Source of the DNA: Actinomycetes bacterium
Lineage (GTDB): Bacteria; Actinomycetota; Aquicultoria; UBA3085; Oleimmundimicrobiaceae
NCBI GenBank assembly: GCA_030614255.1
Contig: JAUWKI010000001.1
Location: forward strand, 1,603 to 65,602
DNA: 64,000 nt
Direction: 5' to 3'
Shown here: positions 37,328 to 62,292 of the stretch, in pieces
Position numbering within the stretch: the stretch's first letter is position 1
Layout of the letters: each line of letters opens with the position of its first letter
Notes under the pieces: model-generated
Seen by the model: only the letters and a program-made list of their open reading frames with translations
Told to the model about the DNA's origin: nothing
Databases searched by the model: none
Program-made: the position numbers and the translations under genes

Positions 37328-37432
37328 AACTCTTATTCAGAGAGGTGGAGGGACTGGCCCTGTGAAACCTCGGCAACCTACCCAGATGGGGTGTGGTGCT
37401 AATTCCTGCAGAGGAACCTGGAAGATAAGAGG
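37328..37432 (+). promoter_or_regulatory. SAM-I riboswitch (S-box) leader of metK
   Basis: ctcttattcagagaggtggagggactggccctgtgaaacctcggcaacc ... ggtgctaattcctgcagagg ... gataagag matches the SAM-I consensus, including the P1 helix ctcttat/ataagag. Confidence 0.85.
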
Positions 37433-49964: not shown

Positions 49965-49970
49965 TATAAT
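49965..49970 (+). promoter_or_regulatory. putative -10 box (TATAAT) of the rib operon promoter
   Basis: Perfect tataat immediately upstream of the FMN riboswitch 5' end; weak -35. Confidence 0.3.
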
Positions 49971-50108
49971 CTTCGAGAAAAGGTGACCCTGAATATTTAT
50001 TTTGGGAATTCCTGACCGGCGGTAAAGCCCGCTAACTTTGCAGAGTTTCTGTGGAGCCGATTCGGTGAAATTCCGAAGCCGACAGTAAAGTCTGGATGGG
50101 AGAAGAGT
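49971..50108 (+). promoter_or_regulatory. FMN riboswitch (RFN element)
   Basis: cttcgagaaaaggtgaccctgaa ... ttcctgaccggcggtaaagcccgc ... gaagccgacagtaaagtctggatgggagaag matches the RFN consensus, including the conserved 3' segment; upstream of ribD. Confidence 0.85.
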
Positions 50109-50114
50109 AATTAA

Positions 50115-55742: not shown

Positions 55743-55985
55743 TTACTTTTTATTGGTTGGCTTATCACTTGAAGAGTTGCCTGAAGAATTTGATGTAAGC
55801 GATTTTTTACTGCAAGAGTCAGTTTTATAGAAGCCGGATCCTTTGAAAATTATTCCTACTGGGTGAAAAATTTTCTTTGTTTTTCCTCCACAAAACTCAC
55901 ATTTAATTTCAGGTGTTTCGGTTATCTTGTGAATTATCTCTAAATCGACCCCACATTTTTCACATTTATAATTATAAATAGGCAT
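55743..55985 (-). CDS. FmdB-family zinc-ribbon protein
   Basis: MPIYNYKCEKCG...IKCEFCGGK paired CxxC zinc ribbon; true start ATG at 55985 (RBS aaaggag) inside the longer ORF-track ORF. Confidence 0.7.
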   Translation of the reverse strand: MPIYNYKCEKCGVDLEIIHKITETPEIKCEFCGGKTKKIFHPVGIIFKGSGFYKTDSCSKKSLTSNSSGNSSSDKPTNKK

Positions 55986-56451
55986 ATACCGCGACTCCTT
56001 TAATAAATATATAAGCCCCAAGTAACCAACAATCCAGTCTTTAAAATTCATCTCTTCCGGCACAGGGGCCTCTTTGCCAAAAAAGCAATTTGGTTACCAT
56101 GTGCTTTCTGAGACGAATAAAACCAAACTGTAAACTTCTTGGAGCTTACGTTAAATAATATCAATCAATCTAAAAAAGTCAATAACACTTTGAGTCATGT
56201 TGTTAAAATAAGGTTATATAAGGTTATAATTCAGTATTTTTGATTGTCTTAAATAAACTCCAAGATTATTTGGTACCAATGTGTCATAAGATGCTTTAAT
56301 TAACATTAATTCTAGCGATTTTTTCGTTTGCAGATGGTTTATATGATAAAATTAATCTGTAAAGTTTGTGATAAATTTAACTAGTTGTGAAGGAAAATCC
56401 TAAATTTTATAGAAATGTTCAATAGTCTGATTATGGAATAGGAGAATGTAA

Positions 56452-58473
56452 GTGAAACCCAAGAATGAATTAATAGAACAAAGAGAATTTCATGCAATTC
56501 TCTCCAGTATCGCTGATGGAGTAATATTAACAGACCGCAAAGGCAGAATTATACATATAAGCTCGCCAGCCGAGTCCATGTTGAACATTGAAGCCGATGA
56601 GATTGTGGGAAAAAGTATATCCATCTCTACTTTAATAGGAAAAGAACGTCAAACCAAGAAAGGTTTAGTTTTTTGTTGGGAAGAAAAGGATTGCAAAGAG
56701 AAAAGTTGCCCTGTCTATAAGAGAGATAACTCCCGGTGTTGGACTGTCACCGACACCTGTCCTAATAGTGTTAAACAAGGAGTTTTTAGAAAAAAGATAA
56801 GACATTGTCAAACCTGCGAGGTATTTGAGCGGAATTCAAAAATACTCGAAGAACCCGCGGTAATGCTAGTTAAGGAAGTATCAATAAGTGAGCCCCAGAA
56901 TAAGGTTTTGCAAATAAAGACCAATCCAATTGTTGACGAGGAAGGAAATTTTCTCGGTTTAGTGAGAACTCTTCATGACATTACGCTTGAGCGGGAAATG
57001 AGTGCCATGAAGGATGAGTTTGTTTCGACCGTATCACATGATTTTCGCATTCCTTTAACCTCAATAAAGGGCTACGTTGACCTCATCTTGGATGGTGAAG
57101 CTGGAGAATTTAACGAAATGCAAAAAGAGTTTTTAACAATCGTCAAACAGAACAGTGATCGACTCATCAGTTTAATTAACGATTTTTTAGATATCTCGAG
57201 AATTGAGTCTGGGAAGATGAATTTTAACATTAAACCCGAGAATTTAAAGTCACTAGTTCAAGAGGTTGTTAACACTTTTCAGAAATTTATCGATGAAAAG
57301 AAAATGGAAATCGACTTAAAATTATCAGACAAGCTGCCAAAAGTATTAGTCGATCATGACAGAATAATCCAAGTTCTCAATAACCTGGTAAGTAACGCGG
57401 TCAAATATACTCCTCCTATGGGAAAAGTTAAAGTAGCTGTCATTAAGAAAAAGAACTATATTGTCGTTTCCGTATCCGATACCGGCGTTGGAATTTCTAC
57501 CAAAGATCAAGAAAAACTGTTTACAAAATTTTATAGGGTAGATAGCTCCCTTATAAAAGAAACGGGTGGAAGTGGGTTAGGTCTATCCATATGTAAAACG
57601 ATAATTGAACGACATGGGGGGAAAATCTGGGTCAAAAGCGAAGAGAATAAGGGTAGCACGTTTAGTTTTTCCTTACCGGCATTAAAAACAGAAGTTAAAC
57701 CTCAACTAATAAAACAGGGAATGAGGATACTCGTAGTCGATGATGAACCTGATATATCGAAGCTAATTCAACTTTACCTTGAGAAAGAAGGATATTATGT
57801 ACTCAAAGCTTTCGATGGATTAAAGGCTCTTGAAATGGCCAAAAAAGAGCATCCCGACCTTATCACTCTAGATATAATGATGGGCAAAGTTGACGGATTC
57901 GAGGTTTTAAAAAAGCTTAAAGAAGATACTCACACGGCCTCTATTCCTGTAATTGTTTTGTCCGTTATTTTAGACGAAAAGAGAGGATACCGATTAGGAG
58001 CAGCCGACTATCTTCCAAAATCGGTTGACAAGAAAAAGCTTATTGAAAGTATCAACAAAATAATTGGAGAAAAGGGTCAGCCGGAAAAAGAGAAGAGAGT
58101 CTTAGTTGTTGATGATGATAGAGACATTGTAAGTTTCATTGAGTTTAACCTCAGAAAAGCAAATTTTGATGTGCTTAAAGCCTATAATGGTATCGAAGCA
58201 CTTAAAATTTTAAAAAAACAAAAACCCGATATTATCCTTCTCGATCTTAGAATGCCAGAAATGGACGGATATGAGGTGCTTGGTGCGATAAAGAAGGATA
58301 AGGGGCTATCTGGAATTCCCGTTATTATCATGACCGCTTACGATCTTGACCGCGAAAAGGCCGAAGTTTTGGATTTAGCTGTAGACAAAGTTTCAAAACC
58401 TTTTTCGATGAGAATGCTTACATCGAGAATAAAAGAGACTTTAGGAAACGACAAGGGTGAAGAAGATGGATAA
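56452..58473 (+). CDS. hybrid sensor histidine kinase: PAS - Cys-rich module - HisKA - HATPase_c - REC - REC
   Basis: H-box STVSHDFRIPLTSIKGY; N/G boxes (LVSNAVKYT, DTGVGIS, GGSGLGLSICK); two receiver domains (VVDDEPD...LDIMM; VVDDDRD...LDLRMPEMDG); GTG start after RBS ggaatagga. Confidence 0.85.
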   Translation: MKPKNELIEQREFHAILSSIADGVILTDRKGRIIHISSPAESMLNIEADEIVGKSISISTLIGKERQTKKGLVFCWEEKDCKEKSCPVYKRDNSRCWTVTDTCPNSVKQGVFRKKIRHCQTCEVFERNSKILEEPAVMLVKEVSISEPQNKVLQIKTNPIVDEEGNFLGLVRTLHDITLEREMSAMKDEFVSTVSHDFRIPLTSIKGYVDLILDGEAGEFNEMQKEFLTIVKQNSDRLISLINDFLDISRIESGKMNFNIKPENLKSLVQEVVNTFQKFIDEKKMEIDLKLSDKLPKVLVDHDRIIQVLNNLVSNAVKYTPPMGKVKVAVIKKKNYIVVSVSDTGVGISTKDQEKLFTKFYRVDSSLIKETGGSGLGLSICKTIIERHGGKIWVKSEENKGSTFSFSLPALKTEVKPQLIKQGMRILVVDDEPDISKLIQLYLEKEGYYVLKAFDGLKALEMAKKEHPDLITLDIMMGKVDGFEVLKKLKEDTHTASIPVIVLSVILDEKRGYRLGAADYLPKSVDKKKLIESINKIIGEKGQPEKEKRVLVVDDDRDIVSFIEFNLRKANFDVLKAYNGIEALKILKKQKPDIILLDLRMPEMDGYEVLGAIKKDKGLSGIPVIIMTAYDLDREKAEVLDLAVDKVSKPFSMRMLTSRIKETLGNDKGEEDG

Positions 58474-58906
58474 GACGAAAATACTAATTGTGGATGATGA
58501 TTTAAATATTTCCCGATTACTTAAGTTTAAGCTCAACAAAGAGGGCTATGATACATTAGAGGCCCACGATGGAGAAGAAGCGCTGATAAAAGCAAATTCC
58601 TTCAGACCAAACTTAATATTACTTGATATTATGATGCCCAAGATGAGTGGTTGGGAGGTTAATAAAGAGCTAAGGAAACATCCGGAACTGAGAAGAGTTC
58701 CCGTAATAATGGTAACCGCGGTGGACCGATTAGATGAGCAGCTTAAAAGTCTTAGTGAGAAAAATATTAAGGACTATATAACTAAACCTTTCAATTTTTC
58801 GGAACTAGTAAATACGGTAAAACGAGTTTTGGGTCAACAAATTAAGAACAATTCAGAGAGTAGCTTTAGTTTAGGCAAAAATAAGCAAGGAGAGCTGAAT
58901 GAGTAA
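58466..58906 (+). CDS. single-domain (CheY-like) response regulator receiver
   Basis: ILIVDDD...ILLDIMMPKMSG...TKPF receiver motifs; no output domain; start overlaps the stop of the upstream kinase. Confidence 0.8.
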   Translation: MDKTKILIVDDDLNISRLLKFKLNKEGYDTLEAHDGEEALIKANSFRPNLILLDIMMPKMSGWEVNKELRKHPELRRVPVIMVTAVDRLDEQLKSLSEKNIKDYITKPFNFSELVNTVKRVLGQQIKNNSESSFSLGKNKQGELNE

Positions 58907-60938
58907 AATTTCCCAGGACACAGCTGAAGCAATTCTCTCTAACGCAGCAGATGGATTAGTTGCTTTTGACAGAGACAATAAAATTATTTTTATAAATCCT
59001 GTGGCAGAACAATTCCTGGGGGTTAAACGAGAAAAAATTATAGGTAAACTCGTCAGCATGTGTAATTTGCTGGGGGCCAAAGAGAAAAGTCAGAGCGAAG
59101 AGTTGTTGAAATGCTGGCAATATTTTGGGTGCAATCACAAAATATGCCCGATGCACAACAAAGAAGAGCCGTGTTGCTGGCTTTGCTCAGATACTTTTTG
59201 TAATGGCACCTTTAAAGGGAGTTTTAAAAAAAAGATTGATGACTGTAAAGAGTGCGAGTTATTTAAGTTAAATGAAAAAATATTGGAAGAAACAGGAATG
59301 CCCTCCGTTAAGCAAGTAATTGCCAGAAAATCTGGTCATAGAATCTTACAAATTAAAACGAACCCGGTATTTAGTAAAAAAGATGAGTTTTTAGGGTATG
59401 TTAAATCTCTGCATGATATAACCGCTGAAAAGAAGATCGACCAGTTGAAGACAGAGTTTGTCTCAACAGTTTCACATGAACTTCGAACCCCGCTTACATC
59501 TATTAAAGGTTATGTTGATCTTCTTTTAGAGCAAGAGGCCGGTAGTATTAATCAAACGCAAAGAGAATTTCTGCGCATCGTAAAACAGAATAACGACCGT
59601 CTCGTTACTTTAATTAATGATTTGTTGGATATTTCAAAAATTGAGTCAGGTCGAGTACATTTTAAGATCAAAACACAGAATCTCACCGAAATTTTGACTG
59701 AAGTTACTGATACTTTCAAGATGCTTGCAAATCAGAAAAAACAGATTTTCAAACTTGACATTTCAAATAACTTACCTGAAATTGCAGCGGACAGGGATCG
59801 TTTATCACAAGTTGTGGCCAATCTTGTAAGTAATGCGATAAAGTATACGCCAACCGGTGGCACCATAAAGGTTAGAGCGATGCAAAAAGATTCTCGAGTT
59901 GAAGTCCGTGTTACTGATAATGGCATGGGGATATCCCAAGAAGATCAAGACAGCCTCTTTACGAAGTTTTTTCGAGTCGATAGTTCTCTTACTCGTGAGG
60001 TTGGAGGAACCGGTTTGGGTTTATCCATTTGTAAGACCATAATTGAGTTACATGGTGGAAAAATTTGGGTAGATAGTGATTTTGGCAAGGGGAGCACATT
60101 CATTTTTTCAATTCCCATTTACAAAGTTATTGAAGAGGAAAAAATGAAAAGAATTCCTCGCGATCTTCTTAAAAAAGGTTTTAAGAAAGGTAAGAAAATT
60201 CTGGTAGTGGATGATGAACCAGAAATTGCAATGCTGCTTCAGATTTATCTTGAAAAAGAAGGGTATAATGTAGTGAAAGCATTTAGCGGGGAAGAAGCGT
60301 TAGAGGTTGTGAGAGACGAAAAGCCGGATCTAATTACTTTAGATATAATGATGGACAAGATGAATGGTTTCGAAGTCCTTCAGGAATTAAAGGACAGGTC
60401 GGATATGACCAATATTCCTGTTGTTGTTCTTTCAATTGTTTCAGATGAATACAGGGGGATAAAACTTGGAGCAGTAGACTATCTCACTAAACCAATCAAT
60501 GTAGAAAAGCTCTCTAAGACGGTAGGGGATATACTTCGGTATGCCGGAACATCAAAAAAGATTTTGATTGTAGATGACGATAAGGATCTCGTGCGATTGA
60601 TTCAAGAGATACTCACTGACAAAAATTACAATACGATTGTTGCGTATAATGGGTTGGAGGGAGTAATTGCCGCAAAAAAAGAGAATCCCGACCTCATCCT
60701 CTTAGATATAAAAATGCCTGAATTGAATGGTTATGAGGTCATACGGAAGTTAAAAGGGGCAGAAGAAACCTGTAAAATACCAATCGTCGTTATGACAGCT
60801 TATGAATTTGATAAAACACAGACTGAGACACTAAGCTTAGTTGAGGAGCAAATTTTGAAACCCTTTTCGATCGATATTATAGCCACAAAAGTCAGGGAGG
60901 TTTTTGAAGGAGGTCCGACAGAAAATGTCAAAGATTAA
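58899..60938 (+). CDS. hybrid sensor histidine kinase paralog: PAS - Cys-rich module - HisKA - HATPase_c - REC - REC
   Basis: Same architecture as 56452..58473 (STVSHELRTPLTSIKGY, DNGMGIS, GGTGLGLSICK, two receivers); start overlaps the upstream RR stop. Confidence 0.85.
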   Translation: MSKISQDTAEAILSNAADGLVAFDRDNKIIFINPVAEQFLGVKREKIIGKLVSMCNLLGAKEKSQSEELLKCWQYFGCNHKICPMHNKEEPCCWLCSDTFCNGTFKGSFKKKIDDCKECELFKLNEKILEETGMPSVKQVIARKSGHRILQIKTNPVFSKKDEFLGYVKSLHDITAEKKIDQLKTEFVSTVSHELRTPLTSIKGYVDLLLEQEAGSINQTQREFLRIVKQNNDRLVTLINDLLDISKIESGRVHFKIKTQNLTEILTEVTDTFKMLANQKKQIFKLDISNNLPEIAADRDRLSQVVANLVSNAIKYTPTGGTIKVRAMQKDSRVEVRVTDNGMGISQEDQDSLFTKFFRVDSSLTREVGGTGLGLSICKTIIELHGGKIWVDSDFGKGSTFIFSIPIYKVIEEEKMKRIPRDLLKKGFKKGKKILVVDDEPEIAMLLQIYLEKEGYNVVKAFSGEEALEVVRDEKPDLITLDIMMDKMNGFEVLQELKDRSDMTNIPVVVLSIVSDEYRGIKLGAVDYLTKPINVEKLSKTVGDILRYAGTSKKILIVDDDKDLVRLIQEILTDKNYNTIVAYNGLEGVIAAKKENPDLILLDIKMPELNGYEVIRKLKGAEETCKIPIVVMTAYEFDKTQTETLSLVEEQILKPFSIDIIATKVREVFEGGPTENVKD

Positions 60939-61317
60939 AATTTTGGTTGCCGATGATGAGCCCGATATTTCCAAATTGATACAGTTTACCTTAGAGAGAA
61001 GAGGACATGAGATTATTTTGGCCGAAAATGGGCAAGATGCGTTGGATCTAGCAAAAAAAGAGTGCCCTGATTTGATTTTGCTTGACGTAATAATGCCGAT
61101 TATTAACGGATACGAAGTGTGTAAACTGTTAAGAGAAGACCCTAAAACAAAAAACATTCCAATAATTATGTTGTCGGGAAAAACGCAGAAAACAGAGATA
61201 GAGCACGGTATAGAGCTTGGAGCACATAGCTATATTTGTAAGCCGTTTAGCCCAAAGGAGTTCGCGGATACGGTTGAAAATATTTTAAACAAAGAAAAAA
61301 GACCTTTGGCCGAATGA
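60925..61317 (+). CDS. single-domain (CheY-like) response regulator receiver
   Basis: KILVADDEPD...ILLDVIMPIINGYE...CKPF receiver motifs; overlaps the HK2 stop; no output domain. Confidence 0.8.
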   Translation: MSKIKILVADDEPDISKLIQFTLERRGHEIILAENGQDALDLAKKECPDLILLDVIMPIINGYEVCKLLREDPKTKNIPIIMLSGKTQKTEIEHGIELGAHSYICKPFSPKEFADTVENILNKEKRPLAE

Positions 61318-61344
61318 GCCAATTCACGATAAGCATTTAAAAAA

Positions 61345-61377
61345 AACAGCTCCCTATAAAAGAGCTGTTTTTTTTAA
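61345..61377 (+). terminator. rho-independent terminator ending the HK-RR-HK-RR operon
   Basis: aacagctc cctataaaa gagctgtt hairpin followed by tttttttt. Confidence 0.6.
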
Positions 61378-61427
61378 AAAGTAGGGTTTTTTTAGTATTA
61401 ATTGAATATAAATAACTTAATGTTATT

Positions 61428-61965: not shown

Positions 61966-62292
61966 ATGAAGTCATTTGGCAAGGCGAGTGAGTTTTATAG
62001 GGTTAAACTGGTAGCGCTTACCGAAAATCAACCTGAGGAATTTGACTGGAAAGACGATATTCTTTATAGAAATCAGCCAGATAGGTTTGACGTAGTTAAC
62101 AAGACAGAACATATGATTATTATAGTGGATATCGATACGGGCGAGAACTTTTATGTAAGGCCTTATAGCTCCAGGCCGAAAGCTCAAAAAAAATTCGACA
62201 TCATAGAAAAAAACTTAAAAGAATTAACTAAAATTCAATTTGATAAGAGATATCGTGCTCATAAAGAAGAACCGTTTGATCCTCATTCATAG
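61966..62292 (+). CDS. hypothetical protein
   Basis: 108-aa ORF 5 nt after the SH3b gene stop; no recognisable motif. Confidence 0.45.
   Translation: MKSFGKASEFYRVKLVALTENQPEEFDWKDDILYRNQPDRFDVVNKTEHMIIIVDIDTGENFYVRPYSSRPKAQKKFDIIEKNLKELTKIQFDKRYRAHKEEPFDPHS

Follow-up and report, generated by a model that had tools for sequence, protein, structure and literature searches.

How does a bacterial signaling operon that encodes two sensor kinases and six receiver domains, and no recognizable output domain, pass on what it senses? This question is raised by four adjacent genes on a 64,000-nucleotide stretch of DNA (hereafter the window) that spans positions 1,603 to 65,602 of the forward strand of contig JAUWKI010000001.1 (GenBank assembly GCA_030614255.1) from an uncultured, anaerobic actinomycete of the family Oleimmundimicrobiaceae. 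In order, the genes encode a hybrid histidine kinase (HK1), a bare receiver protein of the response regulator class (RR1), a second hybrid kinase (HK2), and a second bare receiver (RR2), and this arrangement is denoted here as HK-RR-HK-RR. We propose that the operon specifies a branched two-component network without an output domain, derived from a duplicated module composed of a bare receiver and a hybrid kinase that carries a cysteine-rich "two-CW" domain. To this proposed mechanism as a whole we assign a probability of roughly one-half.

Far from founding a kind of its own, the system is an unusual form of two-component signaling, and it is uncharacterized, as an earlier interpretation made from the sequence alone (the sequence-only reading) had surmised. 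Its parts are all known ones, and the family to which it belongs is of considerable size. Its new aspects are a sensor in which the two-CW domain is nested within a PAS fold, a duplication into a predicted kinase-only/bifunctional pair, and a consistent lack of an output domain.

Two hybrid kinases and two bare receivers

Pfam searches resolve each kinase into the N-terminal half of a PAS domain, approximately 70 unannotated amino acids, a HisKA domain, an HATPase_c domain, and two Response_reg domains. This matches the order of PAS, Cys-rich insert, HisKA, HATPase, and two receivers (REC) previously read from the sequence. The HisKA and HATPase_c matches of HK2 have E values of 5.4e-22 and 8.1e-34. 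The phospho-acceptor histidine resides in the H-box SH196DFRIP of HK1 and SH193ELRTP of HK2, and the N, G1, and G2 boxes (NLVSNA[VI]KYT, D[TN]G[VM]GI, and GG[ST]GLGL) are complete in both proteins; a lack of intact boxes had been named as a ground for refuting the original interpretation. All six receiver domains, fused and separate, retain the residues that correspond to CheY D12, D13, D57, T/S87, and K109. Judged by their H-boxes, their N/G1/G2 boxes, and their fused receivers with an Asp pocket, HK1 and HK2 are hybrid histidine kinases of the HisKA family.

The transmitters are nearest to those of WalK, PnpS, and PhoR among NCBIfam models, although every score is far under the curated cutoff (for HK1 and HK2, respectively: HK_WalK, 304 and 317 versus 725; PnpS, 290 and 303 versus 400; PhoR, 242 and 253 versus 334). 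Partial matches to BarA, TorS, ArcB, RcsC, and LuxQ likewise fall far below the family cutoffs. No hydrophobic segment is present in HK1 or HK2, and both kinases are therefore cytoplasmic. Membrane sensing was rejected on this ground and because the PAS domain begins at residue ~12.

The separate receivers are equally plain. RR1 and RR2 each match Response_reg only (Pfam; 2.1e-26 and 2.9e-28), and RR1 ends in a low-complexity tail of ~25 amino acids. Their NCBIfam matches are confined to the receiver part, are all under the cutoff, and score best with the receiver domains of PhoB, WalR, and RpaB. Neither Pfam nor NCBIfam reveals an effector domain in RR1 or RR2. The description of a unit with six receiver domains, two bare receivers as its downstream proteins, and no output domain therefore holds.

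A two-CW domain nested within a PAS fold

To place the unannotated ~70 residues of the kinases, residues 1-190 of HK1 were modeled by AlphaFold2 from a 21-sequence alignment (pLDDT 87.4, pTM 0.81). The model begins with an N-cap helix, strands A-beta and B-beta, and three short helices, which are followed by residues ~62-135 with short helices only. Beyond this segment lie three strands (139-145, 151-161, and 167-176, corresponding to G/H/I-beta) and a helix (178-189) that leads toward DHp. When the model was compared with the PDB by Foldseek, the matches were exclusively PAS domains (WalK, VicK, BvgS, DosP, FixL, LOV, and CitA PASc, with a TMt of 0.81 for the last), and the insert was gapped in each. 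The best matches of the PAS frame are of the WalK/VicK and PhoR/PnpS type (4mn5, 9a5d, and 4i5s). Likewise, a sequence profile of the sensor matches the WalK cytoplasmic PAS domain (4mn5, E 3e-17) in two stretches, one on either side of the insert. In the model, the ~70-amino-acid two-CW domain thus interrupts a WalK-like PAS fold after E-alpha and before G-beta.

Eight full-length orthologues share the same architecture with an uninterrupted PAS domain. Because such insert-less orthologues belong to the same kinase family, the two-CW domain is a genuine domain-in-domain insertion. FixL, LOV, and similar PAS sensors carry their cofactors in the E-alpha/F-alpha region, and it is this cofactor position that the insert occupies in the model.

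On its own, the insert has no Pfam match and matches a single library model, NCBIfam NF045718 ("two-CW domain"), at 30.9, 31.9, and 32.2 bits (E ~1e-7). The curated cutoff of this model is 35 bits, so the window copies fall below it, and they span its 80 positions with ~55 residues, as a shorter variant. An exhaustive HMMER search with a profile of both sensor regions against 1.84 billion representative proteins returned matches in the thousands. Some of these proteins align continuously over the complete module, and others over the insert alone. From such sequences, 39 insert modules of unrelated architectures, both window copies included, were aligned, and all 39 match NF045718 (best E 4.2e-15). 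This indicates that the window insert is a divergent, shorter member of the two-CW family. Pfam searches of the same 39 modules gave sporadic weak matches, among them DUF2769 in 2 members (E 0.025).

Residues C75, C81, C86, C96, W97, K115, C119, and C122 (HK1 numbering) are invariant in the 21-sequence alignment of complete split-PAS modules. The same six cysteines and the tryptophan recur in the 39-sequence alignment and are 100% conserved in 111 members of the kinase family. The two CW pairs are C75W...C96W in HK1 and C72W...C93W in HK2, and the motif overall reads C-W-x4-C-x4-C-P-x-[YH]-x6-C-W-x5-T-x-C-x~15-C-x2-C, in which the fifth cysteine is variable. The presence of a Cys-rich insert, as originally noted, is hence confirmed. 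Its singularity is not, since the domain is already catalogued by NCBIfam and the kinase family exceeds 100 cluster representatives. For the two-CW domain, there is no Pfam family and no solved structure, and no publication was found in a literature search.

What might this domain do? In other proteins, the two-CW module is located N-terminally to GGDEF, GGDEF-EAL, HD-GYP, methyl-accepting chemotaxis protein (MCP), and HisKA/HATPase domains, often in tandem and without PAS. Fusion to so many outputs is typical of an input domain. The genes nrdD, nrdG, and nrdR for an anaerobic class III ribonucleotide reductase adjoin the operon. Six invariant cysteines with a C-P motif, a location at the PAS cofactor site, and an anaerobic host together point to a metal center, and the two-CW domain is probably a metal- or Fe-S-based sensor. 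We infer that an Fe-S cluster is its most likely cofactor, with a Zn/Cys site as the main alternative. Binding of c-type haem was considered and rejected because no CxxCH is present.

If the two-CW domain binds a redox-active metal, it would represent a new and widespread sensory input domain for kinases, diguanylate cyclases, phosphodiesterases, and chemoreceptors. The nested PAS/two-CW sensor would also illustrate clearly how a cofactor domain can take the place of the usual PAS ligand pocket.

An old duplication with divergent H-boxes

HK1 and HK2 are 48-49% identical over their full length, and the tandem paralogy of the two HK-RR units seen in the initial reading is borne out by this value. 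By domain, identity is highest in HisKA (66.7%) and lowest in the two-CW insert (38.6%). Orthologues in a related genome (GCA_002366545.1, locus L084) are 69-72% identical to the four window proteins (HK1 71.5%, RR1 69%), and HK2 orthologues are 71-74% identical. The receiver paralogues are 33-43% identical (38% for RR1 versus RR2), which is below the orthologue identities. Because orthologues resemble each other more than paralogues do, the duplication must be older than these genomes, and both copies have been maintained. In the same comparison with L084, the operon (~70%) is better conserved than the nearby extracytoplasmic function (ECF) sigma factor (62%), SH3b protein (56%), and anti-sigma factor (49%).

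The paralogues differ at a position of functional interest. Four residues after the phospho-acceptor histidine (H+4), HK1 has Ile200 and HK2 has Thr197. The sequence H-[DE]-F-R-I-P is found only in HK1 and all 7 HK1-type cluster representatives, whereas H-E-L-R-T-P is found in HK2 and 109 others. The phosphatase motif H-[ED]-x-x-[TN] is consequently present in HK2 (HELRT) and absent from HK1 (HDFRI). In four HisKA kinases, Thr or Asn at H+4 is required for the phosphatase function yet dispensable for the kinase function, while an acidic residue at H+1 is needed for kinase activity (Willett and Kirby, PMC3510030). With Ile in place of Thr/Asn, HK1 is predicted to act as a kinase but to be deficient in phosphatase activity, whereas HK2 is predicted to be bifunctional. 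By analogy with the kinases in which these residues were studied, the two proteins are probably a kinase-only and bifunctional pair.

Other features hint at how the components might be wired. The DHp helices of HK1 and HK2 are nearly identical, which suggests that the kinases share partners. Furthermore, the alpha-1 segment of RR2 (DDEPDISKLIQ) is the same as that of the first fused receiver (REC1) of HK1, which suggests that REC1 and RR2 compete for the same phospho-His. A predicted kinase-only/bifunctional pair combined with six receivers and no effector would offer a compact system for the study of output-less phosphotransfer networks.

Related kinases and their loci

A search with full-length HK2 identified as closest named relatives two proteins from Candidatus Oleimmundimicrobium sp. 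(Actinomycetota, Ca. Aquicultoria), both annotated as "response regulator" and 74% and 49% identical to HK2. They are encoded side by side on one contig (L189, GCA_030651595.1). Next comes a large set of ~780-amino-acid proteins that are 44-55% identical over 98% of the query, and those with names derive from metagenome-assembled genomes of Actinomycetota, Coriobacteriia, and Anaerosomatales. Among the best 120 HK2 relatives, hidden Markov models assign the order two-CW, kinase core, REC, REC to 111 and an uninterrupted PAS domain to 8, and the remaining protein is a fragment. On sequence grounds, more than 100 single-kinase homologues (counted as cluster representatives) exist in anaerobic Actinomycetota. 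The public annotation "response regulator" thus conceals a conserved signaling family of these organisms. A separate genome scan with full-length HK1 was set aside, as it was swamped by generic hybrid kinases that match through patterns such as MPEMDGYE. In that scan no loci but L001 and L010 matched the N-terminus, and both lack the Cys-rich insert.

The HK-RR-HK-RR arrangement occurs in four genomes of the Ca. Oleimmundimicrobium lineage, namely at the window, L084, L189, and L190. L084 and L189 have the same gene order as the window: rib operon, ECF sigma factor, DUF5667 protein, Zn-ribbon protein, HK-RR-HK-RR, SH3b protein, and nrd locus. At L190, HK-RR-HK-RR and a third bare receiver gene lie beside the nrd locus, and the ECF pair, the Zn-ribbon (FmdB) gene, and the SH3b gene are missing. 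More distant relatives have a single kinase. A two-CW HK-RR-RR unit is present at L085 (69% G+C), and at L191, from Anaerosomatales, an insert-less kinase is followed by three bare receivers. The four-gene unit, whose conservation elsewhere had been named as a point to check, is therefore kept at L084, L189, and L190 but not at the more distant L085 and L191. The two-CW kinase of L086 is followed by a bare receiver, and those of L088 and L187 by a bare receiver and then a GAF-SpoIIE phosphatase, with L088 additionally encoding STAS and RsbW-like kinase proteins. In total, a bare receiver is encoded after the two-CW kinase at 5 of 7 independent loci. No effector domain was found in the HK-RR-HK-RR or HK-RR-RR(-RR) operons of the relatives examined.

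The surroundings of some of these loci deserve mention in their own right. Multihaem cytochrome genes lie on both sides of the insert-less kinase and its receivers at L191 (7084-12653), and larB/larC-like genes (AIRC, Ni_insertion) precede the two-CW kinase at the high-G+C loci L085 (285-2265) and L087 (2424-4429). Both contexts might hint at the signal. The GAF-SpoIIE genes after the bare receiver are located at L088 (8565-14335) and L187 (1336-3139). L088 also encodes a GAF-Hpt-HATPase-CheW protein. This partner-switching module is not found in the window.

Proposed mechanism and alternatives

In the mechanism that we favor, two differently tuned two-CW/PAS sensors would read the cytoplasmic redox state, O2, or metal status. 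The signal might pass from the two-CW domain to the PAS beta-sheet, along the C-terminal helix, and into DHp. The phospho-His would then hand its phosphate straight to RR1 and RR2, the neighboring bare receivers, with the fused receivers serving as intramolecular competitors, sinks, or regulators that buffer or gate the flux. HK1 and HK2 would converge on the same receivers in a push-pull fashion, in which HK1 adds phosphate and HK2 adds or removes it. Finally, the phosphorylated forms of RR1 and RR2 might act through protein-protein contact on targets encoded elsewhere.

It is also tempting to extend this scheme, albeit tentatively. Perhaps the two-CW module is an uncharacterized Fe-S or binuclear Zn/Cys6 domain whose graft into the PAS cofactor site gave rise to cytoplasmic redox/O2 sensors of a new class. 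Ca. Oleimmundimicrobium-like Actinomycetota would then use a kinase-only and a bifunctional sensor of this class to set the phosphorylation of bare receivers common to both, and the targets of these receivers would be unlinked. In many bacteria, most of them apparently anaerobic, the two-CW domain would likewise serve as the input that controls cyclic-di-GMP turnover, chemotaxis, and kinases.

Several observations weigh against parts of this proposal. At L188, the two-CW kinase is followed by a REC-HD-GYP gene, and at L185 it is an orphan. The H+4 rule for phosphatase activity derives from substitutions by Ala and other residues in other kinases, not by Ile. Six cysteines are an exact fit neither for a pair of Cys4 sites nor for one cluster, and there is a seventh, variable cysteine. 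An HPt (histidine phosphotransfer) protein may be encoded elsewhere in the genome. Lastly, the operon genes of the relatives are separated by gaps of 2-30 nucleotides and do not overlap, so true translational coupling would be specific to this genome.

The sequence-only reading had suggested a multistep phosphorelay or a chemotaxis-like circuit. In a canonical relay, as in ArcB, BarA, LuxQ-LuxU, and Spo0, phosphate would move from His to a fused-receiver Asp, on to an HPt protein encoded elsewhere, and then to RR1/RR2. Hybrid kinases with C-terminal receivers usually feed such relays, and the best partial NCBIfam matches include BarA, TorS, ArcB, RcsC, and LuxQ. However, those far-below-cutoff matches never cover the HPt region, Pfam finds no HPt domain among the four proteins or the gene products of seven related operons, and the bare receivers directly follow the kinase, a position usual for cognate partners. 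Across the loci examined, one Hpt domain was seen, and it lies in a CheA-like gene farther downstream at L088. We therefore regard a canonical relay as unlikely. A chemotaxis-like circuit finds some resemblance in the CheY-sized bare receivers and their weak match to CheY_Halo (66 bits versus a cutoff of 200). Nevertheless, no CheA, CheW, MCP, CheB, or CheR is encoded at this or the related loci (for CheA, CheW, and MCP: window positions 54-64 kb, L084, L189, L190, L085, and L191), the kinases are of the HisKA rather than the CheA type, and the receivers match PhoB, WalR, and RpaB best. At the level of the locus, this suggestion is effectively refuted. Regulation between the kinases themselves, as with RetS and GacS, would involve HK1/HK2 heteromers or cross-phosphorylated receivers, with the bare receivers in a secondary role. 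The HisKA-HATPase-REC-REC layout is that of RetS, the very similar DHp domains could permit heterodimers, and the kinase pair is co-translated. Multikinase networks of this general sort have been described (PMC5992135). Both kinases retain full catalytic boxes, though, and the single-kinase operons of L085 and L191 retain bare receivers, which argues that partnership with the receivers, and not with a second kinase, is what has been conserved. This explanation is accordingly quite improbable in our view.

Two further possibilities concern the insert and the neighboring genes. The two-CW domain could be a structural Zn-knuckle that stabilizes or dimerizes the kinases while they sense something else. 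Six invariant cysteines with little regular secondary structure are typical of structural zinc sites, the homologous PAS domain of WalK binds Zn, and operons of the same type seem to function with insert-less orthologues. We nonetheless consider a purely structural role unlikely. The module behaves as an input domain in that GGDEF, MCP, and kinase proteins carry it as their sole recognizable N-terminal domain, its place in the fold is that of the PAS cofactor, and its named carriers come from anaerobic lineages, with the window itself encoding an anaerobic ribonucleotide reductase. The receivers might instead control the adjoining ECF sigma factor via the DUF5667 anti-sigma factor, or the SH3b or K+ channel proteins, and the ECF/anti-sigma pair, FmdB, SH3b, and the K+ channel had indeed been named earlier as candidate partners. 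The order ECF sigma, DUF5667, Zn-ribbon, operon, and SH3b is kept in the window, L084, and L189, and GAF-SpoIIE phosphatases after the bare receiver at L088 and L187 (with STAS and RsbW-like proteins at L088) make sigma-factor partner switching plausible in some lineages. But synteny among the window, L084, and L189 extends beyond 18 kb, which makes adjacency there little informative, and elsewhere it breaks down: L190 lacks the ECF pair, FmdB, and SH3b, and L085 and L191 lack all of the proposed partners. These neighbors also evolve faster than the operon (49-62% versus ~70% identity), and no conserved ECF-type promoter lies upstream. The partnership thus lacks support, and we judge it very unlikely. 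Direct transfer from two converging kinases to shared bare receivers remains the reading that we prefer.

Operon organization and neighboring features

The open reading frame (ORF) listing places the four plus-strand genes within 56452-61317 (Table 1), in agreement with the coordinates first reported for them. An identical HK1 protein is encoded by two metagenome contigs in ENA, for which an independent gene caller arrived at these four genes with identical starts. Shine-Dalgarno-like sequences (AGGAG, GGTGA, AAGGAG, and GAAGGAGG, in gene order) lie ahead of all four starts. Successive genes overlap, as expected for the coupling that had been suggested, by 8, 8, and 14 nucleotides. The initial range of 8-35 nucleotides is correct at its lower end, but an overlap of 35 would require an upstream TTG at 60904, and the actual maximum is 14. 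The single terminator previously placed after RR2 is also evident as a hairpin (-18.6 kcal/mol, z = -5.4) whose stability was equaled by 0 of 200 shuffled sequences. It was missed by a consensus scanner because its loop is 9 nucleotides long. By these sequence features, the four genes probably form one transcription unit.

Table 1. Coordinates of the operon, its domains, and its candidate expression signals (window numbering)
Feature	Position	Strand	Description
HK1	56452-58473	+	673 aa, GTG start, AGGAG 6 nt upstream
RR1	58466-58906	+	146 aa, ATG start
HK2	58899-60938	+	679 aa, ATG start
RR2	60925-61317	+	130 aa, ATG start
HK1 PAS N-terminal half	56485..56646	+	aa 12-65; A-beta, B-beta, C/D/E-alpha; Pfam PAS 6e-11
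HK1 two-CW core	56674..56817	+	aa 75-122; C75-W-x4-C81-x4-C86-P-x8-C96-W...C103...C119-x2-C122
HK1 PAS C-terminal half	56857..56985	+	aa 136-178; G/H/I-beta, DIT motif; runs into helix to DHp
HK1 transmitter	57007..57681	+	HisKA aa 186-254 (4.8e-19), HATPase_c aa 301-410 (2.5e-33); Pfam
HK1 REC1 + REC2	57727..58437	+	aa ~426-534 (D474) and ~551-662 (D598); Pfam Response_reg, 2 stretches, 1.9e-50
HK2 two-CW core	59112-59255	+	aa 72-119; HK2 architecture same as HK1
Intrinsic terminator	61336-61378	+	7-bp core stem that contains G+C, between an A-run and a T-run; folded stem of 17 bp including flanking A-U pairs
Candidate extended -10 element	56344..56352	+	TGaTAAAAT; ~100 nt upstream of HK1 start

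The DNA proximal to HK1 is poorly conserved among relatives, and its promoter-like elements are of the sigma-70 type. Alignment with relatives reveals no ECF-type motif there. The candidate extended -10 element is also present in L189, although as a consensus match it is not significant relative to shuffled sequences. The equivalent region of L190 carries TTGCAA-18-TATAAT. A tandem direct repeat, AAGGTTATA-t-AAGGTTATA, is located at 56210-56229 (+) in the same upstream region and overlaps a promoter-like TTAAAA-16-TATAAT (56203-56230). The repeat is not kept in L084 or L189.

Upstream of the operon, the minus-strand FmdB/Zn_ribbon_8 gene has its canonical start (M-P-I-Y) at 55985 rather than at a GTG at 56063. 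Its upstream region (55986-56182, minus strand) is a conserved noncoding leader with an invariant promoter, TTGACT-16-TATTAT (56182..56155), followed by a leader of ~165 nucleotides. The leader is better conserved at the nucleotide level than the flanking genes, and stop codons are in frame into the gene. RNAalifold predicts a long interrupted hairpin with 44 pairs, 4 of them compensatory (-40 kcal/mol, from only 3 sequences), and no Rfam family matches. This leader may be an undescribed cis-regulatory RNA. Two known riboswitches are also present in the window: an FMN riboswitch (RF00050, 93 bits, 49965-50111, +) directly upstream of the ribD-ribE-ribBA-ribH operon, and a SAM-I riboswitch (RF00162, 89.6 bits, 37330-37431, +).

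Downstream, a 108-amino-acid protein without a Pfam match is encoded after the SH3b gene (61966-62292, +). Orthologues occupy the equivalent position in L189 (61% identity) and L190 (35%), and none is found in L084. The protein could be linked to the operon or simply reflect retained synteny of the right flank. A role as an HPt protein was rejected because it has neither a Pfam match nor an HPt-like motif. The GC skew is strongly positive (0.1-0.28) over plus-strand genes and -0.13 in the last 2 kb of the window, where genes lie on the minus strand. This change of sign indicates that skew tracks the coding strand.

Comparison with known systems

The window inserts resemble NF045718 domains in their two CW motifs and their C-x4-C-x4-CP...CW...C-x2-C pattern, but they are shorter, score below the cutoff, and are nested inside a PAS fold. 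WalK/VicK and PhoR/PnpS provide the best matches to the cytoplasmic PAS frame and transmitter of the window kinases. Unlike those proteins, HK1 and HK2 have no transmembrane or HAMP parts, carry two fused receivers and the two-CW insert, and are partnered with receivers that lack a DNA-binding domain.

RetS-type kinases with two tandem receivers and RodK of Myxococcus xanthus combine HisKA-HATPase with multiple receivers, have no HPt domain, and use noncanonical routes such as kinase-kinase contacts and bare receivers. RetS differs in being a membrane protein with a periplasmic sensor and no adjacent bare receivers, and beyond generic domains, no sequence relationship of the window kinases to RetS or RodK was seen. 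In Caulobacter, DivJ and PleC are two HisKA kinases, one mainly a kinase and the other mainly a phosphatase, that work on the single-domain receiver DivK, which in turn acts by protein contact. Neither DivJ nor PleC is a hybrid kinase, their genes do not share an operon, and both are under spatial regulation. We claim no homology to them.

For the proposed sensing, the closest precedent is NreB, a cytoplasmic HisKA-type kinase whose Fe-S cluster is held by PAS cysteines and senses O2 or sulfide (PMC13478379). Like the window kinases, NreB is soluble with cysteines in its PAS region. However, these are in the PAS core, with no inserted domain or CW motifs, whereas the six invariant cysteines of the window kinases lie in an inserted domain and their cofactor is putative. 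NreB was not among the PDB sequence matches of the sensor profile.

The "four-component" RedCDEF system of M. xanthus consists of a pair of kinase-type proteins together with one dual receiver and one single-domain receiver. It has no output domain, and its kinase and phosphatase roles are split between the kinase-type proteins, which act on one bare receiver (PMC2755868). As in the window, four two-component proteins without an output domain form one unit. The dual receiver of RedCDEF is a separate protein that phosphorylates RedE, which is unable to autophosphorylate, whereas the dual receivers of the window are fused and both of its kinases have intact ATP-binding boxes. The organism and sensor are also different, and the likeness is one of description and does not imply homology. 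While family membership is not claimed, RedCDEF, DivJ/PleC-DivK, RetS-type kinases, and NreB appear by analogy to be the closest functional precedents for the two-CW kinases and their bare receivers.

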